Program-made: the position numbers and the translations under genes
In this document: positions 1 to 38,249 of the stretch, in pieces
Layout: the number at the start of each line of letters is the position of its first letter
How positions within the stretch are numbered: the first letter of the stretch is position 1
NCBI GenBank assembly: GCA_964443325.1
Contig: CAYUCL010000003.1
Span: forward strand, 100,519 to 164,518
Direction: 5' to 3'
DNA: 64,000 bases
Origin: an uncultured Dehalococcoidales bacterium
GTDB taxonomy: Bacteria; Chloroflexota; Dehalococcoidia; E44-bin15
Notes under the pieces: model-generated
Told to the model about the DNA's origin: nothing
Database searches by the model: none
Seen by the model: only the letters and a program-made list of their open reading frames with translations

Positions 1-2
1 CA

Positions 3-266
3 CCTATCGATCTTAGCCCCTTCCCCGAGCAGTTCTTGTCCCGAACTTTGGTCGGTGCTGTTTCCTCGTTGAAGGAGATCGAGAATATCGAAAACCTGGG
101 GATTTATTTAAAGCAGAGAGAGATCACACTTATCGTCAATGGCAATCAAGTAGAACTCATGATCTTCCCCAATGACCTTATCGCCAGCATAGTAGTTGGC
201 ATGGTCTCTTCACTCAAAGGGATCGACAAAATAGATAATGTGAAGATCACCGTTAAAGTAACTTGA
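3..266 (+). CDS. 3' end of a gene entering the window; two tandem ~40-aa units resembling the MobB-associated C-terminal domain
   Basis: Frame is open from nt 3 (PIDLSPFPEQFLSRTLVGAVSSLKEIE.. / ..VNGNQVELMIFPNDLIASIVVGMVSSLKGID..). Both units share [AM]VSSLK. Family call is from memory of MobB C-termini. Confidence 0.45.
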   Translation, partial: PIDLSPFPEQFLSRTLVGAVSSLKEIENIENLGIYLKQREITLIVNGNQVELMIFPNDLIASIVVGMVSSLKGIDKIDNVKITVKVT

Positions 267-273
267 CCAGGAG

Positions 274-304
274 ATTAATACAAGCCTGGACATCATTAAT
301 ACAA
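274..304. promoter_or_regulatory. Direct repeat ATTAATACAA x2, 21-bp period, upstream of the GRE gene; possible regulator site
   Basis: Exact 10-mers at 274-283 and 295-304. Confidence 0.3.
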
Positions 305-444
305 ATATCACATATAACAAAGCCGAAAAAGCATAGATTTGAACAGAGCATCTAGATATTGAACTTGGATTGACATGAAATCGCCAAGGGAATCGGCAAT
401 ATAGACTCGGCAATGATGGAGACATATCAATACACTGGCCAACA

Positions 445-473
445 TTGACGGTTACGAGGGAATGTGATATAGA
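445..473 (+). promoter_or_regulatory. Possible sigma70-type promoter for the GRE gene
   Basis: TTGACG-N17-TATAGA; imperfect -10. Confidence 0.3.
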
Positions 474-566
474 TTATGTATGGCAGTATCCTTATGGATT
501 TGTGAGGAGATATTTAATCTTTAACAAGGTATGTGTGTTAAAAACCATACCTGAGGGGAGAATGAA

Positions 567-2888
567 ATGGTTGTACAAACGAGAAGCAGAATCCAATCCT
601 TGACAGAACGTTATTTGGAGACCAGGCCCTCTATATGCGCCGAGAGAGCACGCATAGCAGCGGAGTCTTACAAGGAAACTGAATCGGAGCCACCAATCAT
701 CAGGGCGGCTAAAGCCCTGGATGCAGTCCTGCGTGGTATCACCGTCTGGATTCTCGATGATGAGCTTATTCTGGGGCACTGGGCGAGTACCTTTAGAGGG
801 GTCCCAGTGTGGCCAGAGTTCGGCATCCACCCCCCGCAATTAGGCTTCGCATATGGAGATCCTAAACTCCTTCCGTTATGGACCGAGAAAACTCAGCAAG
901 AACTGCAAGAGCTTATTTCATACTATAAAGGGAAAAATCCCACCGAGAAAGTCTGTGCCGAGCTCCCCCAAAAAGTCAAATCCGCTAGAGAAGCATCTTT
1001 GTGGTACTGGCACCTGGGGGTGGTACGAAACAGGGGTGGACGCTACCTTGTAGACCTGCCACTGGTGCTCGGCAAAGGGTTCAATGGTATAAAGAAAGAG
1101 GCGAAAATAAAGCTCAGGGAAATTGACCTGGAAGAAGCCGGCGCTATTGATAGGCAACTGTTCTACAAGTCAGTAATTATTGTCTGCGATGCCACAATTT
1201 CCTTCGCCAAGAGGCATGCAACAAAGGCAAGAGAGGCAGCCAGCGAAGCCAGTGGAGAGAGGAAGCAGGAATTGGAGGAGTTAGCCAGGATTTGTGAGCG
1301 TGTGCCAGCCAATCCTGCCGAGACTTTGTGGGAAGCGTTGCAGTCCGCCTGGTTCGCCTTCATGATAGGTAATCTAGAAGCCGGCGGAGACTCGATATCC
1401 CTTGGAGGGCTGGATCAGATTCTCTATCCTTATTACCAGGCAGACATCGCAAATGGCCGGATTACGAAAGGTAAAGCACAAGAGTTGCTTGACTCGTTTT
1501 TGTTCAAGTTTGGTGAAAACTCTACCCCAGGCGCTGATCTGGATTCTCACGTAAACGGGATAACCATCGGTCGCCAAACAGAGTATGGGCAGGATGCCAC
1601 CAACGAGATAACGTATATGCTTTTGGATGCTCTTGAGCATGTACGCCTGCCAAAACCACAATTTGGTATGAGAATTAACAAGGGAACTCCTAGAGAGCTT
1701 TTGATGAGGGCCATTGATGTAATGAGGGTAAGTGGAGGACGGCCCCAGCTCAACAACGATGATGCAATTATCCCGGCCCTGCTAAGGCGTGGGGTACCCA
1801 TTAAGGAAGCACGCGATTACTCCATGGACGGTTGCCAGCACTTCACTACATACTCCAGAAAAGACCACAGTGCCTGGTTCAACCTGGCAAAAGTACTGGA
1901 CATGGCCTTGAACAACGGGGTTGACAGATTGAGCGGAAAGCTGCTAGGCATCCATACAGGAGACCCCAGGAAATTCACTGTGTTTAATGATGTTATGAAA
2001 GCATTCAAGAAGCAGCTTGAGAACAGTGTTAAAATGCTCAATACCGAGAGTGAAATTACCGACGCCTCAATTAGAGGTGAGATGTGTTTGCCCTATGCCT
2101 CAACCCAGGTGAGAGGCTGTATGGAGAGAGGGGTTGAGGTCTTAGCAGGTGGAGGACGCTACAACTGGACCGGCATGCATGCCGTGGGACTAGCTACAGT
2201 AGCCAACTCACTGGCAGCCATCAAGAAGCTCGTCTTCGAAGAGAAGAAGTTCACCATGGCAGAACTGCTCAACGCTCTGGACAAGAACTTCGAGGGATAT
2301 GAAGAGATGCAGCAAAGGTTAGTTCGAGCACCAAAATGGGGAAATGACGATGACTATATTGACTCACTGGGGGTCGAAGTGGCCAATGCCTGGCTGGACG
2401 AGTGCGACAAGCACACATGTCATACCGATCCTGAGAATCCAGGCCCAACCATACCGGGCTTTCACTCGCTAACCTTCAATTTAGGATTTGGTGAGGCTAC
2501 CGCAGCTACACCTGATGGGAGAAAGGCCGAGGAACCGCTGAGCGACGGGATAGCTCCCTCTATTGGCACTTACCAGGGAGGACCGACAGCGGTGTTTGGC
2601 TCGGCAGCAAAGATTGACCATGCCAGAAGCTGGACAGGTTCACTCACCCTAACCCTTAATCAGCCGACAGAGATAGTAGCTACCCTGGCGAAAACCTATT
2701 TGACCGACATGGGAGGCACGCACCTGATGGGCAATCTCGTCTCCCCTGACACTCTACGAGATGCCAAGGCACATCCAGAGAATTACCGCGATTTGCTGGT
2801 GAGAGTTGCCGGGTTTAGCGCCCGTTTTGTTGAGTTACCCGAAGACATGCAGAATCTGGTTATCGAAAGGGCAGTTGTAGGCGCATAG
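567..2888 (+). CDS. Glycyl radical enzyme (PFL2/GRE superfamily), substrate unknown
   Basis: 773 aa. C-terminal LLVRVAGF glycyl-radical motif (Gly749), Cys loop SMDGCQH (Cys423), TPDGRKAEEPLSDG motif, typical GRE N-terminus. Confidence 0.93.
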   Translation: MVVQTRSRIQSLTERYLETRPSICAERARIAAESYKETESEPPIIRAAKALDAVLRGITVWILDDELILGHWASTFRGVPVWPEFGIHPPQLGFAYGDPKLLPLWTEKTQQELQELISYYKGKNPTEKVCAELPQKVKSAREASLWYWHLGVVRNRGGRYLVDLPLVLGKGFNGIKKEAKIKLREIDLEEAGAIDRQLFYKSVIIVCDATISFAKRHATKAREAASEASGERKQELEELARICERVPANPAETLWEALQSAWFAFMIGNLEAGGDSISLGGLDQILYPYYQADIANGRITKGKAQELLDSFLFKFGENSTPGADLDSHVNGITIGRQTEYGQDATNEITYMLLDALEHVRLPKPQFGMRINKGTPRELLMRAIDVMRVSGGRPQLNNDDAIIPALLRRGVPIKEARDYSMDGCQHFTTYSRKDHSAWFNLAKVLDMALNNGVDRLSGKLLGIHTGDPRKFTVFNDVMKAFKKQLENSVKMLNTESEITDASIRGEMCLPYASTQVRGCMERGVEVLAGGGRYNWTGMHAVGLATVANSLAAIKKLVFEEKKFTMAELLNALDKNFEGYEEMQQRLVRAPKWGNDDDYIDSLGVEVANAWLDECDKHTCHTDPENPGPTIPGFHSLTFNLGFGEATAATPDGRKAEEPLSDGIAPSIGTYQGGPTAVFGSAAKIDHARSWTGSLTLTLNQPTEIVATLAKTYLTDMGGTHLMGNLVSPDTLRDAKAHPENYRDLLVRVAGFSARFVELPEDMQNLVIERAVVGA

Positions 2889-2907
2889 TGCCCCCATCCC
2901 CTCAAAT

Positions 2908-4197
2908 CTACGACACTGAAGGCAGATACGTATCTCCAATAAGCTGTTCTTCTTCAAGCTGAGCTATCTCTTCCCTTGACATGCCCAAAATTTCTCCGTA
3001 AACATACTGATTATGCTCCCCGAGGCAGTTGGGTGGCATTCGGACATCGGCTGGCGTCTTGGAAAACTTAAAGCTCATACCGGGGTATAGATGAGTCCCT
3101 GCCTCACGGTGAGTGACCTCCTTGAAGAAACCGCGCTCCTTAAGATGAGGATCGCTATACAGGTCGGAGGGAGTGACAACCGGGCCCGCCGGAACCCCCA
3201 CCTTCTGTAGAATATGCATCACCTCGTAAGGGTCGTGCATTGTTGTCCATTCCTCTACGAGCTTATCGAGCTCATCCTGGTTCGACAACCTGCCTGAGAT
3301 ATCTCCAAACCTCGCCTCTCTTGTCCAGGCGGGATTCCCCAGTGCCTGGCAGAACGCCTGCCACTGCTCGTCCGATGAGACAGCGATGGTCACCCATCTA
3401 TCGTCACCTCGGCAGCGGTAGCATCCGTGGGGAGCCATTGAAGGGTCTCTATTGCCCATCGGTTTGGCGACTCTTTGATTCATAGTGTAATCCATGATCG
3501 CCTCACCCATGTGGGGAAGCATCGTCTCAGCCTGAGACAGGTCGATCAGTTGTCCTTTCCCCGTCCTGCACCGATAGTGCAGCGCGGTCAATGCAGCAAA
3601 AGCGAGAGTACCAGCGGCGACATTGTCACTCCAAACCGGAGCCGGGTTCCTTATCCTCATATCGTCCCCCGGATAACCTCTCAACGCCATCATCCCGGTT
3701 ACTGCCCCAATGTTGGTGCCAAACGTGCTATAGCCCTTATATGGGCCTTCTGTCCCCAAGCCGGATGCCGAGATCATAATGATGTCCGGCTTTACCTCCT
3801 TAAGCACTGAATAACCTATTCCCAGCTTGTCCATTATCCCCTGAGCGAAGTTCTCCAGGACAATATCGCTTATCCTGACCAAGCGTTTGTATATCTCTAC
3901 TCCTTCGGGTCGATTGAGGTCCAGGGTTATTCCATACTGGTTGCGGTTCATCGCGTGGAATGAGTAAAATCGTTCCCAAGGTTTTTCACCGGCGTCATTG
4001 TCAGCATACCCGAAATTCGCATCCATTCCCTTTGGCGGCCGCGCCACTGCACCCCTGGTCCAAGCAGGAAAACGCTGGATCGACTCCACCCTGATAACCT
4101 CACAGCCCATGTCTGCCAGCATAGTAGCTGCTGCGGTGCCAGTGTACACTATACCGTGAGAGATGACCCTTATCCCTTCCAATGGTAGCCTAGGCAT
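2908..4197 (-). CDS. Family III (CaiB/BaiF) CoA-transferase; subunit retaining the catalytic Asp
   Basis: LADMGCEVIRVES, MNRNQYGITLDL, ENFAQG, VWSDNVAAG (Asp at the catalytic position). Confidence 0.9.
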   Translation of the reverse strand: MPRLPLEGIRVISHGIVYTGTAAATMLADMGCEVIRVESIQRFPAWTRGAVARPPKGMDANFGYADNDAGEKPWERFYSFHAMNRNQYGITLDLNRPEGVEIYKRLVRISDIVLENFAQGIMDKLGIGYSVLKEVKPDIIMISASGLGTEGPYKGYSTFGTNIGAVTGMMALRGYPGDDMRIRNPAPVWSDNVAAGTLAFAALTALHYRCRTGKGQLIDLSQAETMLPHMGEAIMDYTMNQRVAKPMGNRDPSMAPHGCYRCRGDDRWVTIAVSSDEQWQAFCQALGNPAWTREARFGDISGRLSNQDELDKLVEEWTTMHDPYEVMHILQKVGVPAGPVVTPSDLYSDPHLKERGFFKEVTHREAGTHLYPGMSFKFSKTPADVRMPPNCLGEHNQYVYGEILGMSREEIAQLEEEQLIGDTYLPSVS

Positions 4198-4227
4198 ATC
4201 TATCTCCTGTATATCTCCACATATTAA

Positions 4228-5436
4228 TCAGATAACCCCTGCCTTTCTTAGCCTTGCCATATCTTGCTCGGTGTATCCCAGGCGCCCACAGTAGACCTCG
4301 CGGTTGTGCTGGCCAATAATGGGTGCTGGCTGTTGCGGTTGTGATGGCGTTTCGGGCAGTCTAAATGGCAAACCAGGATAGGTGCACTTTCCAACAACAG
4401 GGTGCGCAATCTCCACAAAAGATCCCCTGGCTTTGAACTGTGCATCCTCCAGCATCTCGTCAATTCTATATACCGCTGTGCATGGGAGTCTATGTGTCTG
4501 AGCTGTCCCGACCACTTCCTTGACCGTTCGCTGCCTCAGCCAGGACAATAGGATAGCTTCGAAATCTTGTCGATGCTCTCGTCGAGCTCCCGGGGTAGCA
4601 AATCTAGGGTCTTTATAAAGCTGAGGCATATCCAGCCATCTAAGCGTACGAGGCCAAAACATCGGCACCATCCCCCATATGAAAACGTATCCATTCTTGC
4701 AGGGGTACACCCCCCAGGGATACCCACCTGGTCGTCTCCACCCCGGTCTGTCCGGGTCGCGCCCGCCGAAGGCGTAGTTGATAATCCAGGATGCGCCTTC
4801 GGGAGGGCTGGATAAGCATTCCATGATAGAAACATCCACCTGCTGACCTTCGCCCGTTGCTCTGCTGCCGAACAACGCACCCATGGTAGCCGCCGCCGCA
4901 TCCGTACCAGCCAGATATTGTGCCTTATAGCCGGGATACTTCAACGGTTCGCGCTCAGGCTCTCCTTCAACAAACATATGAGGCCCCATAGCAGAGATCA
5001 CCAGCTCCGTAGCCTTGAAGTCTCGATAGGGACCCGTTTGCCCAAAGTTGGAGATGGATGTCATCACCAGCCTTGGGTTTATGTCCGCCAGAGTCTCGTA
5101 TTGCAGGCCCAGGCTGGGCATAACACGGGGCTCGAAGTTTTCCACCAAAATATCCACGTCTTTGACCAGTTCCTTGAACATCTTAACCCCTGTCTTACTC
5201 TTCAAGTTCAGGGTAATCCCCTTCTTATTGGTATTGAGATGAAGAAAGAGCCCGCTTTTTTCGGGATGTGGGTCATCCCCAAGAAAAGGCTCCATTCTCC
5301 TCGCTCCATCCCCTTCACCAGGCTTCTCAATCTTAACAACCTCAGCACCGTAGTCAGCCAGTAGCTTGGTGCAGTAAGGACCAGCAACATTATGGGTCAG
5401 GTCTAAAACTCTAACATCTTGCAAAGCTTGTTCCAT
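4228..5436 (-). CDS. Family III (CaiB/BaiF) CoA-transferase; subunit with Gln at the catalytic Asp position
   Basis: RVLDLTHNVAGPYCTKLLADYGAEVVKIE, LNTNKKGITLNL, KAQYLAG. ATG 5436 preferred on SD spacing. Confidence 0.9.
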   Translation of the reverse strand: MEQALQDVRVLDLTHNVAGPYCTKLLADYGAEVVKIEKPGEGDGARRMEPFLGDDPHPEKSGLFLHLNTNKKGITLNLKSKTGVKMFKELVKDVDILVENFEPRVMPSLGLQYETLADINPRLVMTSISNFGQTGPYRDFKATELVISAMGPHMFVEGEPEREPLKYPGYKAQYLAGTDAAAATMGALFGSRATGEGQQVDVSIMECLSSPPEGASWIINYAFGGRDPDRPGWRRPGGYPWGVYPCKNGYVFIWGMVPMFWPRTLRWLDMPQLYKDPRFATPGARREHRQDFEAILLSWLRQRTVKEVVGTAQTHRLPCTAVYRIDEMLEDAQFKARGSFVEIAHPVVGKCTYPGLPFRLPETPSQPQQPAPIIGQHNREVYCGRLGYTEQDMARLRKAGVI

Positions 5437-5602
5437 TACCACCTCTCGAATATTCTACCTCTCCGCCAGACTACATCTTAAATTGCCACAAACGACTCTT
5501 ATTATAATAGCACCTGTCGATGACCAAATGCCACGCCTGCTGGCAATCTCACTATAGCAGTAATGACAACACAGATAGCCCTCATCCACTCAGCGTGCAT
5601 TA

Positions 5603-5631
5603 TTGACACTTAGTTGGCCGAAGGTTAGTAT
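5603..5631 (+). promoter_or_regulatory. sigma70-type promoter of the 2-oxoacid:ferredoxin oxidoreductase operon
   Basis: TTGACA-N17-TAGTAT, 46 nt before the ATG at 5677. Confidence 0.7.
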
Positions 5632-5676
5632 TAGACAATCCAGTCATAGTGCCCCCCAGATACAGAGAGCGGCCTA

Positions 5677-6264
5677 ATGAATCAATTATCGAATAGAAGC
5701 AAGGAAATCTACGAGATTAGATGGCATGGGAGGGGCGGTCAGGGAGCGGTTACCAGTGCTCAGATCTTGGCTGAGGCTGCGTACTACGCTGGATATAAGG
5801 GTGTGACATCCGCCCCCTATTTTGGTGCGGAGAGAAGAGGGGCTCCGGTTACTGCCACTACCAGGTTCTCTTCCGAGCCCATCAGGGTTTATTCCGAGGT
5901 GGAGACCCCAGATGTAGTAATGGTGCTCGATGAAAGCCTTCTAAAGTTCAGCGATGTTATATCCGGTCTCAACCAGGGAGGGTGGTTAGTAGTAAATAGC
6001 ATGAGGAGACCGGCCGAAATAGGCCTGATGGGTGAATTCCAAATCGTCACTGCCAATGCTACAGAAATCGCCCATGAGCTTGGTCTGGTGGTGGCTGGCG
6101 TCACTGTGGTAAACACCCCCATCCTGGGTGCTTTTCTTCGAGCTACTGGGTTGCTATCTCTAGACAGTGTGCGCCAAGCGATAATGGGCAAATTCTCAGC
6201 CACGGATGCCGACAGAAATTTCAGGGCAGTGCAGTTAGCCTTCGAGAAGACGCTCCTGAAATAG
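5677..6264 (+). CDS. porC: 2-oxoacid:ferredoxin oxidoreductase gamma subunit
   Basis: EIRWHGRGGQGAVT, FGAERRGAPV, VNTPILGA. Confidence 0.9.
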   Translation: MNQLSNRSKEIYEIRWHGRGGQGAVTSAQILAEAAYYAGYKGVTSAPYFGAERRGAPVTATTRFSSEPIRVYSEVETPDVVMVLDESLLKFSDVISGLNQGGWLVVNSMRRPAEIGLMGEFQIVTANATEIAHELGLVVAGVTVVNTPILGAFLRATGLLSLDSVRQAIMGKFSATDADRNFRAVQLAFEKTLLK

Positions 6265-6329
6265 ACTAGCCTTCGATTCACCTGTGGCATAGTGGTAAAT
6301 TATACGATTAGTAAAGGATTGGAACTGCA

Positions 6330-6629
6330 ATGCATACAAGAGATTGCGGTAATATATCCGGTGTGTCATTTCCCAGCATTGGCGAGGCAGGAAAGACAGG
6401 CGACTGGAGAGAGTTAACGCCAGTCATCGATCCCCTGAAGTGCATACCAGTGAAGAGGCACAAGCCTTCCTGTTTCCTCTGCTGGCTATACTGCCCAGAG
6501 GCGGCAATCAAAAGGGGCATTCCCGTGGAAATAGACTTAGAGTACTGTAAAGGTTGTGGAATCTGTGCTGAGGAATGCCCGACAGGAGCCATTGCAATGG
6601 TAGAGGAAAACAATCTGACAGCAGGATAG
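6330..6629 (+). CDS. porD: 2-oxoacid:ferredoxin oxidoreductase delta subunit (2x[4Fe-4S])
   Basis: GKTGDWR, C-x9-CFLCWLYCPE, YCKGCGICAEECP. Confidence 0.88.
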   Translation: MHTRDCGNISGVSFPSIGEAGKTGDWRELTPVIDPLKCIPVKRHKPSCFLCWLYCPEAAIKRGIPVEIDLEYCKGCGICAEECPTGAIAMVEENNLTAG

Positions 6630-6647
6630 AGTGAGGTGTGTTAGACC

Positions 6648-7865
6648 TTGAAAGAAACAGCGGATAATACACAGATAATCACCGGCAACTATGCTACCGC
6701 CATGGCAGCCAAATTGAGCCGGGTTCAGGTAGTTGCCGCTTACCCCATCACTCCTCAATCTCCAGCGACTGAGGCCCTGTCCCAGTTCGTCGAAAGGGGC
6801 GAATTGGATGCCGAGTACGTCAGGGTTGAGAGTGAGCACAGTGCCCTCGGGGTATGTATAGCTGCGTCAACCGTGGGCGCTCGCACCTTCACCGCCACCA
6901 GCGCCAATGGGCTGGCATATATGTGTGAGCAGCTTCATTGGGCAGCCGGAGCCCGCCTTCCCATTGTGCTTGCCTGCGTCAATCGCGCCATGGCAGCGCC
7001 GTGGAGCGTGCTCAACGACCAGCAGGACTCCATATCTCAAAGGGATACGGGTTGGATTCAAATATACGCCCGAAACAGCCAGGAGATTCTGGACTCTATC
7101 ATCCAGGCCTATAAGATCGCTGAGAGCCTATACGTGCCGGTAATGGTGGGCTACGATGGTTACATCCTGTCCCATACGGTGATGCCGGTCGACATTCCTA
7201 ACCAGGAGCAGGTGGACCGCTTTCTCCCCCCATATAAGCCCCATACCATCCTTGATCCCGCCGCTCCTCAGAATCTGAATCTCGTTACCTTGGCAAATCC
7301 CAGGCAAGATGCTCACGGCGTTATGTGCCACGGATACATGGAGCTCAGGTATCTCCTTCAAGAGGCACTGGAGAGTTCCTTAGAGACAATTGTAGAAGTA
7401 GACAGCGAATTTAACGACACCTTTGGTCGCAGCTATGGAGGTACTTATTGGGGGTATCGTCTGGAGGATGCCAACTTGATCCTGGTGGCTATGGGCAGCC
7501 TCGCCACCGAGGCTACGGTGGCGGTTGACCAGCTCAGGCAACGAGGCCACAGGGCTGGGCTGCTAGCTCTAAGGGTCTATCGCCCCTTCCCCAGGCAAGC
7601 TATGATATCTGCAACTAAGAAGGCGGAGCTAATCGTAGTCTTTGACAAGAACATCAGCTATGGCTATGAGGGTGCTACATGCTCTGACCTGAAGGCAGCC
7701 CTCTATGGAAGCGGTATCCAGGTGCCGGTGCACAACTATATTGCAGGCCTGGGGGGCAGAGACGTCAAAGCCAGAGAGCTGGCCGATGCCGCCGAGAGGT
7801 CACTGCGACAAGTGGAAGAAGGCCGACCGCAAAAGGAAGTCGAGTGGTTGAATTGCCACATCTGA
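6648..7865 (+). CDS. porA: 2-oxoacid:ferredoxin oxidoreductase alpha subunit
   Basis: AAYPITPQS, VESEHSA, TATSANGL; TTG start. Confidence 0.9.
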   Translation: MKETADNTQIITGNYATAMAAKLSRVQVVAAYPITPQSPATEALSQFVERGELDAEYVRVESEHSALGVCIAASTVGARTFTATSANGLAYMCEQLHWAAGARLPIVLACVNRAMAAPWSVLNDQQDSISQRDTGWIQIYARNSQEILDSIIQAYKIAESLYVPVMVGYDGYILSHTVMPVDIPNQEQVDRFLPPYKPHTILDPAAPQNLNLVTLANPRQDAHGVMCHGYMELRYLLQEALESSLETIVEVDSEFNDTFGRSYGGTYWGYRLEDANLILVAMGSLATEATVAVDQLRQRGHRAGLLALRVYRPFPRQAMISATKKAELIVVFDKNISYGYEGATCSDLKAALYGSGIQVPVHNYIAGLGGRDVKARELADAAERSLRQVEEGRPQKEVEWLNCHI

Positions 7866-7889
7866 GACATTTGGTTTGAGGACATTGAG

Positions 7890-8780
7890 ATGACAGAAAG
7901 CGTGCTGAGCCTACCCAAAAAGGAATATATGCTTCCCGGAAACAGGACCTGTGCTGGTTGCGGTCTGGGCATTGCCTATCGCCATATCCTCAGGGCGCTG
8001 GGGGAGAACACAATCGTTACCGTGCCCGCTAGCTGTCTCACCGTTCTCCATGGCATGTATCCCATCACCTCGGTGAACATCCCGTGCATGAATGTCACCT
8101 TTCCCAGCACTGCGGCGGCATCGTCAGGGCTTGTCGCCGGTCTGAAGGCGTTAGGAAAGAAGGGGATTACGGTGGTAGGCTTTGCCGGCGATGGAGGGAC
8201 CCATGACATCGGAATCCAGGCTCTAAGCGGCGCCGCCGAGAGGAACACCGATTTCATCTACATCTGCTACGACAATGAGGCTTACATGAACACCGGGGGC
8301 CAACGCTCCAGCTCCACCCCCCTGGGGGTTACCACGACTACCACCCCCGTGCTGGGCAAAGCGCAGCATCAGAAGGACATGCCAGCCATAATGGCAGCCC
8401 ACAGGATACCCTATGTAGCTACAGCCTCATCTTCCTATCCCCTCGACCTCTATGAAAAGGTTAAAAAGGCAAAGGACATCACCGGCACCAGGTTCATTTA
8501 CATCTCCACGCCCTGTCCTCCTGGATGGTTCTTCCCCCCCAAGGACACGGTGAAGATGGGCCGTCTGTCAGTTGAAACGGGGATGGTCGTCCTCTACGAA
8601 ATAGAGAACGGGGCGTTTCATCTCACCGGAGCCAGCGAGAGGCTGGCGGCAAAGGGTGGACTAAAGCCAGTGCGAGAGTACATCGAGCGTCAGGGACGGT
8701 TCCGCCGCATCACCGAGGCTCAGATAGACGAGCTGCAGAGATGGGTAGCTGATAGGTGGGCGCAATATACCTCCCATTAA
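7890..8780 (+). CDS. porB: 2-oxoacid:ferredoxin oxidoreductase beta subunit (TPP-binding); substrate (pyruvate vs branched/aromatic 2-oxoacid) not determinable
   Basis: CAGCG, GDGGTHDIG, DNEAYMNTGGQRS, PCPPGW. Confidence 0.9.
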   Translation: MTESVLSLPKKEYMLPGNRTCAGCGLGIAYRHILRALGENTIVTVPASCLTVLHGMYPITSVNIPCMNVTFPSTAAASSGLVAGLKALGKKGITVVGFAGDGGTHDIGIQALSGAAERNTDFIYICYDNEAYMNTGGQRSSSTPLGVTTTTTPVLGKAQHQKDMPAIMAAHRIPYVATASSSYPLDLYEKVKKAKDITGTRFIYISTPCPPGWFFPPKDTVKMGRLSVETGMVVLYEIENGAFHLTGASERLAAKGGLKPVREYIERQGRFRRITEAQIDELQRWVADRWAQYTSH

Positions 8781-8920
8781 AACGTGAAGCCATGCTAGGT
8801 ACATTTCACTCAATCAGTACTGCATTACTTGAATTGCCACTACAGTATTAAATCCTACATATTTGGTTCAGCTAATTCGAGTATCGAAATGCTTATGTAT
8901 CTGTATGATAAGAATATCTA

Positions 8921-8950
8921 TTGCGATATCTTACCCATCAGTGGTAGAAT
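8921..8950 (+). promoter_or_regulatory. Extended -10 promoter for the 8980 gene
   Basis: TTGCGA-N18 with TG-n-TAGAAT, 29 nt before the ATG. Confidence 0.5.
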
Positions 8951-8979
8951 ATTTGTGCTAAAAGGAAAAAGGTTAAAAT

Positions 8980-10047
8980 ATGGCAAAGCCGAAGGCCACC
9001 TTCATTGATGCTTTCGAACCAATACTTATTAAGGCTTGGGGTTCATATCAAGATAGCTTGGATGACAATCTTCTTAACAGAACCCGAGAGGCTCTAACTT
9101 ACATCCGCCGTGTTTATAGATTTAAAGGCGAGCTGGGTGCTAAGTCTCCATCGCATATTGACTTCAAGGAGCCCAGGAACAGGGCAGGATACCTTGCAGC
9201 TTTTGGTGAGCGTCATGCCTATCTTGCTTACGAACATCTCAAAATGGTTCAATCAGTTGACCCTAGCGCAATCCCAGCGCCTGACAACCACGGAGAACTC
9301 ACAGTAACGCTGGTTGGAGCAGGCCCGGCGATTGAGACATATGGTCTTTGTCTATTTTACAACGAATCTGCTCACCAGCTCAAAAGACTTACTCTTAATC
9401 TTATTGATAAAATTCGCGAATGGCAACCTACACGAGACATGGTACTTTCTGGATTGATAAAGGAGGTACTACCCAAATTGGACATTTTTAGTGTCCCAAT
9501 CGAAGCCGATCTGAAGGAAGCTAGTTGCGTACAAATATTTGCTGCGCATCATGATTCACTCGTTAGGACTCGAATACTCATAGTTTATAATGTATTAAAC
9601 GAAATCGAGTCTACTCACGCACCCATTATCTTGAGAAACCTCGGCTACATAGTGAGGCAATGCGAGCAACCACTCCTTCTACTGCTTGCTGAACCTACAG
9701 CTAAAAAAGCGTGGCCTAGGATAAAATGGTTTCGCAAATTGCTTTTTGAACACACGACAATAATCTTAGATAACCCTAACGAAGAGATCAGTTTTTACGA
9801 AGAACCAACTAACATCGCCATGAGTGGGGTAAATGAGCGTTTGTTCAGCAGGGCCTTTGGAAAGAACCCACCTGTATTTGAAACAACTCTGAAGCGTGTC
9901 CTCATGGCATGCAAAATGATCCCCCAACCTCCGTTTTCAGAACAGCAGTATGAGCAACTGCGAAGACTGCAATTTAGAAGAGACCGCAAAGGAAGAATTG
10001 TACCAGAACCTGTCGCCGATTTTAATCGTCAGCTCACTTTGTTCTGA
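8980..10047 (+). CDS. Uncharacterised protein with class I SAM-methyltransferase-like motifs (Rsm22-like) and C-terminal QLTLF
   Basis: VTLVGAGPA (motif I-like), NLIDK, EADL, IVYNVLNEI, LLLAEP. Lower GC than neighbours by eye. ORF is clearly real; function is inferred. Confidence 0.5.
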   Translation: MAKPKATFIDAFEPILIKAWGSYQDSLDDNLLNRTREALTYIRRVYRFKGELGAKSPSHIDFKEPRNRAGYLAAFGERHAYLAYEHLKMVQSVDPSAIPAPDNHGELTVTLVGAGPAIETYGLCLFYNESAHQLKRLTLNLIDKIREWQPTRDMVLSGLIKEVLPKLDIFSVPIEADLKEASCVQIFAAHHDSLVRTRILIVYNVLNEIESTHAPIILRNLGYIVRQCEQPLLLLLAEPTAKKAWPRIKWFRKLLFEHTTIILDNPNEEISFYEEPTNIAMSGVNERLFSRAFGKNPPVFETTLKRVLMACKMIPQPPFSEQQYEQLRRLQFRRDRKGRIVPEPVADFNRQLTLF

Positions 10048-10206
10048 TAGTTCGTCGCCATTCATACGACTACAATCGCTTCTCTAAATCCATATAAGAT
10101 GTATTACAGACGAAAGCTACGCTTCTAGATTTATTCATCACCCAATCAACATCATCACAGGCTTTTCTATGATAGCTACATGCTTGTTGTTAACGTAGGC
10201 AGAATC

Positions 10207-10458
10207 TCACTTGAGACAACTGTCGATGTATTTCACAAAATCGTCAATCGAGGCGAGCTCTTTCATCCGTTCGATGTCTATCTCTATATCAAAGGCGTTT
10301 TCGACCCCGACTATAATCTGCACCCAGTGCAGCGAGTCAGCTTTAATGTCCTTTAGAGCCGTCTCCAAGCGAATCTCGTCCTCACTGCACCGCGCGATCC
10401 TGGCTATTATCCTTCTTACTTCATCTAATGCTGCCGTTACCATGTCTCCCTCCAGCAA
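10207..10458 (-). CDS. Acyl carrier protein (divergent)
   Basis: 83 aa, acidic; KADSLHWVQIIVGVENAFDIEI contains the DSL phosphopantetheine site. Confidence 0.88.
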   Translation of the reverse strand: MLEGDMVTAALDEVRRIIARIARCSEDEIRLETALKDIKADSLHWVQIIVGVENAFDIEIDIERMKELASIDDFVKYIDSCLK

Positions 10459-10482
10459 CTATTCAACATAAGAACCTGAGTT

Positions 10483-11517
10483 CTATTCACTTGATGACAT
10501 ACCCGCCTGGGCCTTTTCCAGCTCAACGCGAAGCTTACCGACGAAGTCGGTCTCCAATGCTATCTTCGCCTGCTCGATAGTACCGACAATCTGGGGCGCC
10601 TGGCTACTGCCATGTGCGACAGCCACTACACCGTTGACCCCCCATAGAGGACCACCGCCTAAGACCGTTCCCGGGCTCATGAGCCTCACTAGCTTGCCGG
10701 TGACTTTGTCCAGTTCCTCTGGCGAAAGCGTATCCTTTAGCTCCTCTGCCATCCAAGGGCCAATAGCCCTCCCCAGACCCTCGCAAAACTTCACCACTAT
10801 ATTACCCACAAAACCGTCGCAGACTATTACATTCGCCTTCCCCACCACTATATCCATGCCCTCCACATTGCCAATGAAGTTCAAATCGCTTTTCTTGAGC
10901 AAAGAGTAAGCCTCCTTGGCCACATCATTGCCCTTACCTTCTTCAGCACCTACGTTGAGCAGGCCAACTGTAGGCTCGTCTATTCCAAGGAATATCCTTG
11001 CATAAACAGTGCCAGCCGCAGCAAAGTTCAACAGATGATATGGCTGGCAACCCACGTTGGCTCCCAGGTCGAGGACTACAGTCTCTGGCGCCAGCCCCAG
11101 GAAAGGTCCCCCCGCCATCGGCCGGTCTATCCCGGGCAAAGTCCCTAAATATTGAAGCGCGGCTACCATAGCGGCGCCGGTCGAACCAGCGCTAACCATA
11201 GCGTCTGCTTCACCCTCCTTAACAAGTCTGGCGGCCATCGCAACCGGGCTGTTTGGCTTGCGTAAAACAGCAAATGCCGGCTCCTCTCCATCCCTGATAA
11301 GGTCATTGGCCTCCACTATCCTAATCTGGAGGCCAGTTGCGTTAACTCCGCTAAGCTCTTTCTCAATATCGGGCTTTATGCCGACCAGCACTATCTCGAC
11401 CCCCAATTTCCTTGCCGCCTCAACCGCTCCCTTCACTATCTCGCCAGGAGCGTAGTCGCCACCCATGGCGTCAATCGCTATTCTCATTGGCTGCTTTGTG
11501 CCATCTGACTCGCTCAT
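10483..11517 (-). CDS. plsX: Phosphate:acyl-ACP acyltransferase
   Basis: RIAIDAMGGDYAP, SAGSTGA, PGIDRP, LDLGANV, LLNVGAEEGKG, CDGFVGN, AHGSS. ATG 11517 follows a GGAGG SD. Confidence 0.93.
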   Translation of the reverse strand: MSESDGTKQPMRIAIDAMGGDYAPGEIVKGAVEAARKLGVEIVLVGIKPDIEKELSGVNATGLQIRIVEANDLIRDGEEPAFAVLRKPNSPVAMAARLVKEGEADAMVSAGSTGAAMVAALQYLGTLPGIDRPMAGGPFLGLAPETVVLDLGANVGCQPYHLLNFAAAGTVYARIFLGIDEPTVGLLNVGAEEGKGNDVAKEAYSLLKKSDLNFIGNVEGMDIVVGKANVIVCDGFVGNIVVKFCEGLGRAIGPWMAEELKDTLSPEELDKVTGKLVRLMSPGTVLGGGPLWGVNGVVAVAHGSSQAPQIVGTIEQAKIALETDFVGKLRVELEKAQAGMSSSE

Positions 11518-11564
11518 AGCGCCTCCCTTCTCTCTGCACATTGATTATAGATGATGACTTAAGC

Positions 11565-12629
11565 TTACCAGCTATGGCTTATTGCGTCCTGCGGGCAAAC
11601 GCTGTGACAGTTCATTTCGTGCGAGTTGCTACAGGAATCGAATCCCGGACAAACCAAAGCCAGCTTTTTCCTTATCTCTTCCTTCACCTTAGCTTTCGGC
11701 CGGCCATAGTCATCCTCAGCTATCTCGAAAACGTCCGACGGGCACGCCTGCACGCACTCTCCACAGCCATCGCACAGGGCATTATCAACTGTGATGAAGT
11801 ACTCACCTGTCCCATCGGTGTACCCATAGTTCACCTTCATCTCCTTTGTGCCCCTGCTATCACGCCTCTCCGTAGCAAAAAGCGCTGCGCCAACAGCGCC
11901 TACTATCTGCGGGTCCTCACATAGCAACGGCTCAAGGCCAACCTTCTCCCTTAGTTTCTCCACCATCCCCTTGTTCTTGGCAATCCCCCCAGTGATGCTG
12001 AATTCCTTTTCTATCGATACCCGCTTCAACAGTTGAACCGACCTGGTCGCTATGGCGTCATGGAGGCCGGCTAATATATCGCTCTTGGCTACCCCTTCCT
12101 TGAGATGCACCAGCGCCTCTGAGCGGGCGAATACAGCACAAACAGTATTGAAGAGGATTGCCTTATCCGAAGTAAGTGACAGGTCTCCAATCTGTTCCAG
12201 AGGAATGTTCAGCACCTCGGCTATCATTTCAAGAAACCTGCCGGTACCTCCAGCGCACTTATCATTCATGACAAAATTGACCACCCGGCCACTTCCATCA
12301 CAACTTATTGCTTTGCAGTCCTGTCCCCCCATATCCAGAATTGTCCTAACCGATGGGAAGTACCAGTTGATACCTCGGGCATGGCAGCTTATCTCGGATA
12401 TATTCTCATTGGCGAAGGGAACGAGCACCCTTCCATAGCCGGTGGCGACAGTATAATCAATGTCACTCAGCGATAGTCCCGTTCCTTTTAGCACCGCCTC
12501 TATCGTCATATAGGATGTCTTTGCACTTTCGGGTCCAGTATCACAGATTACCGACGATACTATAGCTCCGTTTCGCATTATCACCGCCTTTGCCGCCCGC
12601 GACCCGATATCTATTCCGGCAACCGTCAT
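11565..12629 (-). CDS. ATP-dependent activase subunit (BcrA/BzdQ/HgdC family) fused to a C-terminal BzdM-like [4Fe-4S] ferredoxin
   Basis: GIDIGS, ATGYGR, EISCHARG, LDMGGQDCK, MNDKCAGGTG, CAVFARSE. Tail NYGYTDGTGEYFITVD..CDGCGECVQACP..CPQDAISHSW. Confidence 0.88.
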   Translation of the reverse strand: MTVAGIDIGSRAAKAVIMRNGAIVSSVICDTGPESAKTSYMTIEAVLKGTGLSLSDIDYTVATGYGRVLVPFANENISEISCHARGINWYFPSVRTILDMGGQDCKAISCDGSGRVVNFVMNDKCAGGTGRFLEMIAEVLNIPLEQIGDLSLTSDKAILFNTVCAVFARSEALVHLKEGVAKSDILAGLHDAIATRSVQLLKRVSIEKEFSITGGIAKNKGMVEKLREKVGLEPLLCEDPQIVGAVGAALFATERRDSRGTKEMKVNYGYTDGTGEYFITVDNALCDGCGECVQACPSDVFEIAEDDYGRPKAKVKEEIRKKLALVCPGFDSCSNSHEMNCHSVCPQDAISHSW

Positions 12630-13421
12630 CTAGCTAGCCTCTTTCTCCATAGCTTCTCTGGCCAGAATTGCAGCACCGAGGGCTGACACAATCTGTGGCA
12701 CATCAGGTACCAGCACTGCGAAGCCCAGTTCCTTTTCCATGGTTTTTACCACGCCATCATTTAAGGCTACGCCGCCGACTAAAGCGACATCCTTTTCGAT
12801 GCCTGCTCTTTTGCATAAGGTCATGATTCGGCTCACCACAGAGTAGTAAATCCCGGCTATTATCTCTTCCTTCGGGGTTGGAGGATCTCGATGTACGTGC
12901 GATATGACCTCAGATTCGGCGAACACCGCACAGGTGCTGGTGATGCTAGCCCTTGATTTCGCCTTAAAGGATAACTCCGACATCTCCCCTAGAGACATCT
13001 GCATTAGCTTTGCCATTTGTTGAAGGAATATGCCCGTTCCGGCAGCGCATTTATCCTGGCCTGCCCAATCGTTGACACGTCCACGCTCATTCAGCTTGAC
13101 CACTGTGCTGCTCTCTGCCCCCATATCGATAACCATCCGACTGGAGGGGAACAGGTAGCGCGCCCCGCGGGCAAGACAGGTAGTAATTGCTTTCTTCTGC
13201 TGGATAAACGACACCGATTTCGCCCCTGCACCGGTTGACACGATATACAAATCGTCATTTATGCTGATCCCCGCCTGACTCAAAGACTCCTCCATAGCCA
13301 TACGAGCGCTCTCCTCTGCCTCATCGCCAGACATTATGATAGTGGAGGTCAAGATACCATTGTCAGATAGAATAACTGCCTTCGTTGTCAGGCTGCCTAC
13401 ATCTATACCCAGCGTCTTCAT
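12630..13421 (-). CDS. Second ATP-dependent activase subunit (BcrD/BzdP-like)
   Basis: GIDVGSLTTK, IDMGAES, QDKCAAGTG, STCAVFAESEVIS, GGVALN. Confidence 0.88.
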   Translation of the reverse strand: MKTLGIDVGSLTTKAVILSDNGILTSTIIMSGDEAEESARMAMEESLSQAGISINDDLYIVSTGAGAKSVSFIQQKKAITTCLARGARYLFPSSRMVIDMGAESSTVVKLNERGRVNDWAGQDKCAAGTGIFLQQMAKLMQMSLGEMSELSFKAKSRASITSTCAVFAESEVISHVHRDPPTPKEEIIAGIYYSVVSRIMTLCKRAGIEKDVALVGGVALNDGVVKTMEKELGFAVLVPDVPQIVSALGAAILAREAMEKEAS

Positions 13422-17944: not shown

Positions 17945-18094
17945 CAGAATAGCGTTGATAGCCTCATGCTACAGAGACTATTAGGGCATACAAAGTTAAT
18001 GACGACAAATCGATATTGCTAGGCTGTTGGTTGCTATGATGCGATAGAGGGTCACAAACGTTATTCACCTGTGGATAGACTGGCCTCGCTATAA
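17945..18094 (+). pseudogene. C-terminal remnant of a tyrosine recombinase/integrase with an in-frame stop
   Basis: Frame of ATG 17966 reads QNSVDSLMLQRLLGHTKLMTTNRYC*AVGCYDAIEGHKRYSPVDRLASL*. Contains the LQxLLGH...T..Y box II with catalytic Tyr, TAG at 18020-22, and no recognisable HxxRH or N-terminal part. Confidence 0.8.
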
Positions 18095-20443
18095 AGCTAT
18101 GATATCTGACAATTCAGCTTCTTCAGGTTCTAGCTGGCTCAAAGTAGATATCATGGGTATAAGTATAGGCGATATTGCTCTGGTTAATAGCTTAACCCTA
18201 TCAGGAATTGACTCCCCATTTTCAATGTTCGGGTTCTTATTTCCAAGATCACTCAATTCTCGAAGTAAAGACATACCTATTAATACTACACCATAGCGGA
18301 ATTGCGCCATTAGAAGATTAACATCTATTGCTGGTTTGGCATACTTTAATTCAGTTTGTAGGCAAATGTTATCTATGTTTACGTAGAAATCATACTTACC
18401 ATCTCCTATTGGTATAACGTCTAAAGCATCAAATTCATCGAAATGATGGTTATCCCAACCATCACGATGTACATCAATGATTTCTGGTATGGTTAATAAT
18501 GACGGAATTTGCTTATTTGCTCCTTTGTTACCTGGTGGTGGAGAATCTCCTGTGGTGCCTCCCTTTTGGTGTTTTTTTCTTGGAGATACAATGACCTGGA
18601 ATGCGTCTTCGAAAGGTCCCCATTTAATAGCGTCTTTGACTATAGTATTGTATTTGACTATATAGTTTGGTTTTACTCCCTTAGGTAAAGAAACAGTTAA
18701 GTTTGCTGTCCCATTCCATAGGGATAAAACATAGTCAGTTACTTCAATACCATTAGCTAATAATATGAATTCACCTGGATCATCATCTCTGTCAAAGTAG
18801 TCATTTGAAGCGTCAGTCTCAAACTGAACTCGGAAGCGCCAATTGATTGGGCAATTTTTGATGAACTCTTTATGTTTCTTTCTCTGTAATCTGAAGTAGG
18901 TAGGATATTTGTTGCCATAGTAGATTTGGCCGATTCCAGTTTCTTCAAAGTGAAATGGATTTGGTAATTTACCTCCTACAGAAAGCAATTTCGCAAGTGT
19001 TGGAGAGTTTCTGATTACCTTCTCAATAACATCCATAAGGGGTTTGGACTCTTCTAATTTGTCCCTAATTTCTTCCTGTCTACGTTTTTCTCTTAATGCT
19101 CTTAATCCTGGATGTTCCTTTATTATCCGCTCGAGTTGGGTTTCTATTTCGTTTCTTAATTCACATGCGCTTAACCGGTCTCTACTGTTCATAAATAGAT
19201 CTTCTTTGAGTCTATCATCAAGATTAGTGCAATCAACGATTATGAGCAAAGAGTCTCTTAAATATCCCATACCAACGGCTTCATGTTGGAAAAACGTGGA
19301 TGGTAAATTGGCATGAGTTTGTCCATTGATAGTGAAAATTACGCCTTCATTACGCCGATAAGTTGAGGACTGGCCTTTTCTAAATGCATAAACCTGAGCT
19401 TGCAGCCTTTGTCCCATGCAAGCGATTTGATGAGAACTTGGATATGTAGGCTCTAGATTTTGTCTTTTGTCTTCTTCTAATCGTACACTTAAACCCGATA
19501 GGGTCGTTTCAAAAGTATGACCAGAGTAACCGTTCCTACGCTCAAATAATCTTACAGGTAATGCTATGTTGGGCATGAGTAAAGAGAGAGCATTGTAGAG
19601 ATCAAAGAGAATATTCGTTTTAAGTCCCTGTATGTTATACTCATATAATTTTATATAGGTGCCCCATTCCAGAGGTACTCCGAATTTGTTCGGATATGGA
19701 CCGGGTAATAGTGGTAATGAGTCAGCTTTAAAAGAGGGGATCTTATCTTCGGGCGCTAAATACGTGTATGCAGAGGTACGTCGATTACCACGTGGATCTT
19801 CTCTCCTTACTACAGTGAATCCCCATGTGTTACTCTCTCCAGGCAAAAGTATTTTTGGATTACGTTTAGATACAACCAATTGCATATGGTGTTGACCACA
19901 AAACCTAAAAGCTCCGGTTCCTCCCATATGGAATTTTCCTTGTACAAATGGGATTTCACTTTTGATGGACTTGAAAAGGCCAAGTAAGGTCTTCGGCATA
20001 TTTTCAGGAGTCTGTCCTTCACCGCGATCAATTATGGAATAACAAGGATTACTTTTTGATCCTGTGGCTACAAGGCTGATGTCTTCAGCAAGATTGGCCC
20101 TTTTTCTTGTATTCATCTTGGATAGTATTCCTTCTGGGATGTCATAGAATCTTATAAGTGCTTCGGTTACATCTCTAGGTGCTTCTTTACTCTTGGGGTC
20201 AATACCACTTTCAAAACATTTGCCCAATAGCAATGAGTCGACTGAATTGACGATCTTTTCAACAAGCGCATATTCCGCTCGGCTTTGTTGGTTACCTATA
20301 GTTGAATAATTATCTTCGATATCTCCAAAATACCGCCAGCATGATAGATCATCCCAATACTTATTTAGCTGCAAAGTTTTCACTATTTCATTTTCTGTTT
20401 CGCACTCAGCAAGAGCTAAAAACATGTCTTTGTAATTCATCAT
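18089..20443 (-). CDS. GHKL (HSP90/MutL/MORC-like) ATPase domain protein, 784 aa
   Basis: ALVEKIVNSVD (motif I), IIDRGEGQ (DxGxG), GKFHMGGTG (ATP-lid Gly motif), then an S5-like segment (TINGQTH..EDLFMNSRDRL), a coiled coil and an unknown C-terminal region. Confidence 0.7.
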   Translation of the reverse strand: MMNYKDMFLALAECETENEIVKTLQLNKYWDDLSCWRYFGDIEDNYSTIGNQQSRAEYALVEKIVNSVDSLLLGKCFESGIDPKSKEAPRDVTEALIRFYDIPEGILSKMNTRKRANLAEDISLVATGSKSNPCYSIIDRGEGQTPENMPKTLLGLFKSIKSEIPFVQGKFHMGGTGAFRFCGQHHMQLVVSKRNPKILLPGESNTWGFTVVRREDPRGNRRTSAYTYLAPEDKIPSFKADSLPLLPGPYPNKFGVPLEWGTYIKLYEYNIQGLKTNILFDLYNALSLLMPNIALPVRLFERRNGYSGHTFETTLSGLSVRLEEDKRQNLEPTYPSSHQIACMGQRLQAQVYAFRKGQSSTYRRNEGVIFTINGQTHANLPSTFFQHEAVGMGYLRDSLLIIVDCTNLDDRLKEDLFMNSRDRLSACELRNEIETQLERIIKEHPGLRALREKRRQEEIRDKLEESKPLMDVIEKVIRNSPTLAKLLSVGGKLPNPFHFEETGIGQIYYGNKYPTYFRLQRKKHKEFIKNCPINWRFRVQFETDASNDYFDRDDDPGEFILLANGIEVTDYVLSLWNGTANLTVSLPKGVKPNYIVKYNTIVKDAIKWGPFEDAFQVIVSPRKKHQKGGTTGDSPPPGNKGANKQIPSLLTIPEIIDVHRDGWDNHHFDEFDALDVIPIGDGKYDFYVNIDNICLQTELKYAKPAIDVNLLMAQFRYGVVLIGMSLLRELSDLGNKNPNIENGESIPDRVKLLTRAISPILIPMISTLSQLEPEEAELSDIIAL

Positions 20444-38200: not shown

Positions 38201-38249
38201 TCAAGAATTATAGTATTAGCTGTGACTAGTTTCCGTTGAGGTGATAGGT

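Follow-up and report, generated by a model that had tools for sequence, protein, structure and literature searches.

A gene at positions 567–2,888 on the forward strand of a 64,000-nucleotide (nt) stretch of contig CAYUCL010000003.1, from an uncultured Dehalococcoidales bacterium, is predicted from its sequence, fold and selection to encode a functional glycyl radical enzyme (GRE) of a rare, uncharacterised clade. The whole 64-kb stretch is referred to here as the window. Members of the clade carry Cys-Gln-His on the Cys loop, where characterised GRE eliminases carry Cys-X-Glu (CXE). The enzyme would bind a small anionic organic acid through arginine residues, employ His425 in place of the missing glutamate and depend on an activase encoded elsewhere in the genome. 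For these elements taken together, we estimate a probability of about 0.6.

Fold and family placement

The open frame of 773 residues (P0001) is preceded by a Shine-Dalgarno-like GAGGGGAG (551–558, forward strand), read from the sequence approximately 7 nt 5′ of the ATG, and a 300-nt AT-rich intergenic stretch lies upstream of this ribosome-binding site. No Rfam riboswitch was detected within positions 1–6,000 of the window. Pfam assigns residues 7–642 to the PFL-like domain (PF02901; 7.9e-178) and residues 659–755 to Gly_radical (PF01228; 5e-17). The AlphaFold2 model (pLDDT 91, pTM 0.92) adopts the full ten-stranded barrel GRE fold, and Foldseek aligned it with more than 40 GRE chains at TM 0.90–0.94, with 0.93 for propanediol and glycerol dehydratases. 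The protein combines the barrel and C-terminal radical domain, an RVxG[FWY] Gly loop, a cysteine on the Cys loop and the characteristic fold, as expected of the GRE superfamily. In sequence and in modelled structure, it has all of the features needed for glycyl/thiyl radical catalysis.

The nearest relatives in the Protein Data Bank (PDB), by both sequence and Foldseek, are glycerol dehydratase (GDH), CutC, propanediol dehydratases and HypD, at 31–35% identity. However, the protein reaches neither the NCBIfam equivalog cut-offs nor the TIGR01774 subfamily cut-off (566 bits vs. 678). The eliminase equivalogs HypD (487 vs. 1100), CutC (451 vs. 1050), HpsG (492 vs. 1000) and HpfG (470 vs. 1000) remained far below threshold, as did the decarboxylase models IAD (NF033718; 361 vs. 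1100) and HPAD (NF033715; 277 vs. 1150), the PFL model TIGR01255 (102 vs. 994) and the PflD-type equivalog. Furthermore, the Cys-Cys pair of PFL and TdcE is replaced by Gly422-Cys423. With GDH of C. butyricum (1R8W/1R9D) and the propanediol dehydratases (5I2G, 9RCO), the enzyme shares the fold (TM 0.93, root-mean-square deviation approximately 2.2 Å, 33–35% identity), a single cysteine on the Cys loop, an RVxG[FY] Gly loop, a lack of small subunits and, through its relatives, the activase subfamily TIGR02494. It differs from them in having Cys-Gln-His rather than Cys-Val-Glu, and in a second deletion near residue 695.

An altered active site

The active site was mapped by HMMER alignment of the enzyme to GDH (1r8w). 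From the 1R9D structure, we take His281, Ser282, Tyr339, Gly346, Asp447, Tyr640 and Gly763 to be active-site residues of GDH. All motifs given below lie on the forward strand. The Cys loop SMDGCQH (residues 419–425; positions 1821–1841) aligns to GDH GC433VE435, which places the predicted thiyl radical site Cys423 at Cys433, Gln424 at Val434 and His425 at Glu435; GCQH itself spans residues 422–425 (1830–1841). The Gly loop RVAGF (residues 746–750; 2802–2816), supported by Pfam and by its coordinates, carries the glycyl radical site Gly749 at Gly763. A script confirmed the coordinates that the initial annotation had given for GCQH, Cys423 and Gly749, along with the positions of RVAGF and ITIGRQ.

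Around these two loops, most of the GDH pocket appears to be exchanged. Within the β-1 segment N155-R156-G-G-R159-Y-L-V-D163 (1029–1055), Arg159 stands at GDH His164, and both Arg156 and Arg159 are invariant in the clade. In GGDSIS (1383–1400), Asp275 takes the position of His281, and Ser276 corresponds to Ser282. The Tyr339 loop is lost in a seven-residue deletion directly before ITIGRQ (residues 332–337; 1560–1577), in which Arg336 occupies the second Gly of the usual GG, at Gly346. In RKDHSAW (1857–1877), Lys432, Asp433 and His434 are clade-invariant and His434 stands at Asp447, and in PGFHSL (2454–2471) His633 stands at Tyr640. Cys433, Glu435 and His164 have been named as active-site residues of GDH (PMC13450708). 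By the alignment, the window enzyme lacks both the His164 proton donor and the substrate-binding residues of the glycerol and diol dehydratases.

Apart from Arg336, these residue replacements are fixed across the clade. All 14 members have DGCQHFTTY, which belongs to a larger block, ARDYSxDGCQHFTTYxRKDHS[AG]W, with few variable positions; held constant at 61–89% identity, the motif is no chance occurrence. A Gln and His following the Cys occurs in none of the 255 other GREs aligned. The same split (14/14 vs. 0/255) holds for the full signature R159/D275/C423/Q424/H425/H434/H633. Further residues that never vary among clade members but are rare outside the clade are Arg156, Tyr160, Arg392, Asn396, Asp421, Phe426, Lys432, Asp433, His538 and Phe637.

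The characterised eliminases and isomerases (glycerol and propanediol dehydratases, HypD, CutC, IslA, HpsG, HplG, YbiW and PflD) all carry Cys-X-Glu, and Cys-Cys is confined to PFL and TdcE, according to a June 2026 review (PMC13450708), which bears out the initial annotation on the catalytic Glu of eliminases and the Cys pair of PFL. The window enzyme has Cys423-Gln424-His425 at this site. That annotation had also singled out the GCQH loop as non-canonical; the loop is indeed unique against the other 255 GREs, but it is less singular than was implied. Non-CXE Cys loops (CFT, CNS, CIH, CST and others) are common among uncharacterised GREs, and thus the Gln-His loop alone is not extraordinary. 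As far as the alignment can tell, the distinctive point is that the whole eliminase catalytic set is replaced together in a rare and sharply bounded clade.

The enzyme may instead simply be a diverged dehydratase or lyase of the 1,2-eliminase type, acting on a hydroxy compound, in which His425 replaces Glu and the reaction class is retained on a new substrate. The closest structures and HMMs are all eliminases, a histidine at the Glu position is able to serve as a general base, and the loci of the sister groups hold catabolic genes for small organic acids. However, this explanation would have to accommodate the replacement or removal not only of Glu435 but also of His164, His281, Asp447, Tyr640 and the Tyr339 loop, in a group whose characterised eliminases and isomerases without exception keep CXE (PMC13450708). 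We consider it unlikely.

A small clade under purifying selection and its activase

In a search of 5.8 billion proteins, the clade comprised 13 clusters at 61–89% identity (764–774 residues), after which identity fell to 40%. Among approximately 2,100 GRE representatives with E < 1e-30 in a library (1.84 billion proteins) that had been clustered at 50% identity, the clade accounted for a single one (1100 bits); the next sequence had 553 bits and 41% identity. A tree built from 269 GREs recovered the clade (14 sequences) as monophyletic, with support of 1.0 and a stem length of 0.71 substitutions per site. No characterised GRE fell within the clade; one sharing GCQH there would have counted against the initial annotation. 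The sister groups P0135 and P0053 (support 0.98) are 42–46% identical to the window enzyme. Literature searches turned up neither a description of a Cys-Gln-His GRE nor the characterisation of any GRE from Dehalococcoidia, and whole GRE clades are still without function (PMC13450708). Of the proposal of an uncharacterised GRE class with different chemistry, the class is upheld, in that the enzyme is no orthologue of a characterised GRE and falls in a distinct, rare clade with invariant Cys-Gln-His; the different chemistry is suggested by the residue replacements.

A pattern scan of 185,579 species representatives located the clade in four: a Dehalococcoidales metagenome-assembled genome (MAG), Dehalococcoidia CSMAG_854, Desulfobacterales BLK5-2.bin.101 and a tar-biofilm MAG assigned to Chloroflexota. 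Its known sources are Dehalococcoidia/Chloroflexota and Desulfobacterales MAGs from salt-marsh and marine sediment and tar biofilm. Within the clade, the sub-clade P0014–P0017 (61–67% identity) has ITLGGQ in place of ITIGRQ. ITIGRQ, earlier noted as replacing the usual ITIGG, is present as described and marks one sub-clade only.

At L013 (2948–5211), a species representative of the Dehalococcoidales has an 88% identical GRE from which residues 673–689 are missing and whose frame shifts at that point; either the gene is a pseudogene or the sequence was misassembled. In L041, a second GRE of 820 residues (1387–3849, forward strand) lies 69 nt upstream of an 89% identical GCQH GRE (3918–6239). 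This second GRE is 29% identical to P0001, has the Cys loop APTACVGGGSP with no Glu, and has GDH as its best PDB match (3e-126), with MasD and TutD near 1e-98. The tandem pair is without an activase on its 12-kb contig, and the second GRE is absent from the equivalent position in the window.

Selection on the gene bears on whether it could be a decaying or radical-less relic in a genome that lacks an activase. The gap of 17 codons with a frameshift in L013, a split gene in the sister locus L040 and the lack of an activase from the window and a further 7.5 kb upstream would all suit a relic. Nevertheless, the frame of the window gene is intact, and both the Gly loop RVAGFSARFVEL and the cysteine of the Cys loop are preserved in every clade member. 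Comparison with an 89% identical relative gave a dN/dS of 0.11 at a dS of 0.50, and the gene is under purifying selection. The exact protein occurs on four other public contigs from independent assemblies, many salt-marsh metagenome runs contain near-identical DNA, and unlinked activases are normal, as an orphan activase in L044 illustrates. A relic is very improbable.

The initial annotation described the only radical SAM gene in the 64 kb as a B12-binding enzyme, and a six-frame scan agreed: the single open reading frame (ORF) of at least 100 residues with CxxxCxxC (38241–39956, forward strand) has B12-binding and Radical_SAM domains. Two genuine activases of clade relatives, searched against the window by tblastn, matched ferredoxin motifs only. 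The window begins just 566 nt upstream of the GRE gene, and L001 (GCA_034430535.1), which is 99.99% identical to window positions 1–12,888, was used to reach 7.5 kb further upstream. This stretch encodes a DUF5658 membrane protein, a 101-residue Cys-free repeat protein and a divergently oriented 329-residue radical SAM protein. The last (L001 5459–6448, reverse strand; 1.6 kb upstream of the GRE) gives weak Radical_SAM_C matches of Elp3/YtqA/B12-type radical SAM character and belongs to no curated family.

Although it is the radical SAM gene nearest to the GRE and could in principle represent a new, non-canonical type of activase, its CX4CX2C motif, its lack of any TIGR02494 match, its absence at the corresponding place in L007 and L008 and the use of canonical activases by clade relatives led to its rejection, and such a role is extremely improbable.

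Relatives with a linked activase point elsewhere. In L006 and L012, of the P0014–P0017 sub-clade, a gene for an activase of 316–325 residues begins 5–24 nt after the GRE; these proteins have GCPLRCLWCDNPES and two ferredoxin motifs, and score 341–343 bits on TIGR02494 against a cut-off of 174. We infer that a 66% identical activase also stands beside the P0014 GRE. The sister loci L040 and L042 hold TIGR02494 activases as well, 44–51% identical to those of the clade, and clade and sister activases together span 329–350 bits. By contrast, in the Arg336 sub-clade, to which the window enzyme belongs, no activase occurs within 10 kb of the GRE at any of the loci inspected (L001, L005, L007, L008/9, L010, L011 and L041), and an unlinked activase is the rule. 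Another MAG (GCA_964580315.1) has a TIGR02494-like activase standing alone at L044 8001–8936, with no GRE within 8 kb.

Given that L006, L012 and both sister groups have an adjacent canonical activase, the activase of the window GRE is probably unlinked, and it is probably of the canonical TIGR02494 type, encoded elsewhere in the genome. The absence of an activase that was originally reported for the window holds after scan and tblastn, but it is not a real anomaly.

Candidate substrate and gene neighbourhood

The composition of the pocket suggests the kind of substrate that the enzyme may bind. By alignment, three Arg, Lys432 and four His are invariant in the clade; of these, Arg159, His425, His434 and His633 align with active-site residues of GDH, and the remaining invariant Arg, Lys and His are known from the alignment alone. 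A pocket with this many basic residues would favour an anionic, probably polyanionic, substrate. The β-1 position of Arg159 is equivalent to HypD His160, CutC Asp216 and IslA Gln193, an equivalence established among IslA, CutC and HypD, and an arginine four residues upstream of this site binds the sulfonate directly in IslA and hydroxyproline via water in HypD (PMC8473560). IslA/IseG and HpsG/HpfG likewise hold the anionic group of their substrates with arginines on strand β-1 (and β-8; PMC8473560; PMC13450708), and their own loci include TRAP transporters, as do those of the sister groups of the window enzyme. Unlike it, they keep the CXE Glu, and its basic residues are placed differently, with an Arg where IslA has Gln193. 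Phenylacetate decarboxylase (PAD/PhdB) and the other decarboxylases of the GRE family also act on carboxylates, and Gln484 of PAD is among the residues essential for catalysis (PMC13450708); however, their similarity to the window enzyme is low, and no arylacetate-type context surrounds its gene.

The sister groups share Arg159, His434 and His633 and also lack the Glu, with a Cys-Ser-Thr loop in P0135 and a Cys-Ser-Ile loop in P0053. In L040 (6298–19022), genes for TRAP DctPQM are followed by GRE P0053 (split by a frameshift into 133 and 649 residues), a TIGR02494 activase, an unassigned 295-residue protein, a family III CoA-transferase, an HMGL-like lyase and a class I fumarase-like hydratase. 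This locus looks like a candidate GRE-dependent cluster for dicarboxylate catabolism. L042 (150–13855) encodes an HpcH/HpaI lyase, an activase, TRAP DctPQM, intervening genes including a sigma-54 regulator, GRE P0135 and an MFS transporter. Both are organic-acid catabolic layouts and fit the Arg/His pocket that is common to the sisters and the clade, and their TRAP transporters, CoA-transferases and acyl-CoA lyases suggest an anionic organic acid as substrate. The sisters differ from the window enzyme in lacking Gln-His, and their TRAP transporters and acyl-CoA lyases are not seen beside the window gene.

Catalysis is envisaged along the lines known for the family. The Gly749 radical would generate a thiyl radical on Cys423, which would abstract a hydrogen atom from the substrate and later return it to the product radical. 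Arginines would hold a substrate that is small and anionic, with a carboxylic acid (a di- or hydroxy acid) as the likeliest candidate; proton transfer, otherwise the task of the Glu, would pass to His425, and the product would feed CoA-dependent metabolism. The reaction may be an elimination, a decarboxylation, a C–C cleavage or a rearrangement. Judged from the residues and the sister contexts, we slightly favour an anionic organic acid bound by Arg156, Arg159 and Arg392, with His425 as a proton relay in place of Glu.

Immediately downstream of the GRE, the window encodes two family III CoA-transferases. The first (2908–4197, reverse strand; 429 residues; Pfam CoA_transf_3, 8e-100) is convergent with the GRE across a 19-nt gap, and the second (4228–5442, reverse strand; 404 residues) is 29% identical to the first, in the style of the BbsEF/LssDE pairs. 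The first scores below every NCBIfam equivalog cut-off. The adjacency is kept in the Dehalococcoidia relatives L007, L008/L009 and L041, and L013 has ORFs that match the CoA-transferases, as judged by size and position alone. Orthology between the window CoA-transferases and that of L040 is unsupported, given that their 33–36% identity is about the level of paralogues. It is possible that the first CoA-transferase is a pathway partner of the GRE.

Two-subunit CoA-transferases of family III are characteristic of pathways for X-succinates, which they activate in Bbs and Lss (PMC12583861). Working with the adjacent CoA-transferase pair, the GRE could accordingly serve in an anaerobic pathway for hydrocarbons or X-succinates, where it would either be a divergent member of the fumarate-adding enzymes or have alkyl- or arylsuccinates as substrates. 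The direct adjacency of two such genes in annotated Dehalococcoidia members, the tar-biofilm origin of one clade member and the second GRE directly upstream in L041 would suit this pathway. However, the GRE is far nearer to the eliminases (GDH, 3e-140) than to the BSS/MASS alpha subunits (approximately 5e-79; TutD 4.6e-79, MasD 6.8e-79), and the Foldseek ranking agrees. No small Cys-rich ORF that could encode the Fe-S subunit of an X-succinate synthase adjoins the gene, and the 101-residue protein upstream has no Cys. With the CoA-transferase pair neither co-transcribed with the GRE nor present in several clade members, as set out below, an X-succinate pathway is distinctly unlikely.

Several points weigh against an acid-binding GRE with an unlinked activase. 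The pocket was mapped by sequence alignment to GDH rather than from coordinates, and the equivalences of the Tyr339 loop and Asp447 are approximate because of indels at 327–331 and 433–434. No activase was found in the 64-kb window or in the 7.5 kb upstream of it. The CoA-transferase pair is convergent with the GRE and not co-transcribed with it, and it is absent from L005, L006, L010, L011 and L012; thus its link to the GRE is lineage-specific. Moreover, the neighbourhoods in L005, L010 and L011 have nothing in common with that of the window. Finally, the anion need not be a carboxylate, given that TRAP transporters import sulfonates too.

Of the remaining neighbourhood, the first feature is the 3′ part of the gene for the 101-residue Cys-free tandem-repeat protein (P0004; 3–266, forward strand), which consists of two repeats of approximately 45 residues and bears a weak likeness to the C-terminus of MobB/FeS-domain proteins. 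The pair formed by this repeat protein and the DUF5658 membrane protein (L001 6723–7747) recurs upstream of the GRE region in the Dehalococcoidia relatives L003, L007 and L041, and the repeat-protein gene is also found in L002, L004 and L008. As a candidate small subunit of the GRE, the repeat protein was rejected on its lack of Cys, its separation from the GRE in L007/L008 and its absence outside Dehalococcoidia, and it probably lies outside the GRE system. Beyond the CoA-transferases lie a four-subunit 2-oxoacid:ferredoxin oxidoreductase and then a BCR/HAD-like cluster with PlsX, ACP, DegV and SDR genes, which is a separate operon. Two further ORFs, at 18089–20443 (reverse strand; 784 residues) and 8980–10047 (forward strand; 355 residues), have no Pfam or NCBIfam match. 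The loci at L006 15290–22295 and L012 14612–22085 encode a class II aldolase, acyl-CoA dehydrogenases and AcnX (the swivel subunit only within L006), and L012 also has UbiD/UbiX genes. Given the resemblance of AcnX and UbiD/UbiX to an archaeal-type mevalonate pathway, the host of these loci may be an archaeon or an unusual member of the Chloroflexota.

On present evidence, the clade is one of many unassigned GRE clusters, and no new reaction has been demonstrated. It is conceivable, though doubtful, that the Cys-Gln-His clade and its Arg159/His434/His633 sisters represent a reaction class new to GREs, such as a B12-independent carbon-skeleton rearrangement, a C–C cleavage or a decarboxylation of an aliphatic di-/tricarboxylic or hydroxy acid. 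In that event, an Arg/His-lined pocket would replace Glu-based ketyl chemistry and would feed CoA-transferase/lyase pathways in sediment anaerobes. To our knowledge, every newly characterised GRE clade has exposed an unsuspected anaerobic pathway, from choline to trimethylamine, hydroxyproline, and isethionate to sulfide, to anhydroglycolysis. The present clade is a clean target in this respect: it is small, sharply delimited and under purifying selection, it has lost the entire eliminase catalytic set, and its relatives provide partner activases. Its hosts come from salt-marsh and marine sediments and from a tar biofilm, and belong to Dehalococcoidia and Desulfobacterales, uncultured groups whose carbon sources there are poorly known.

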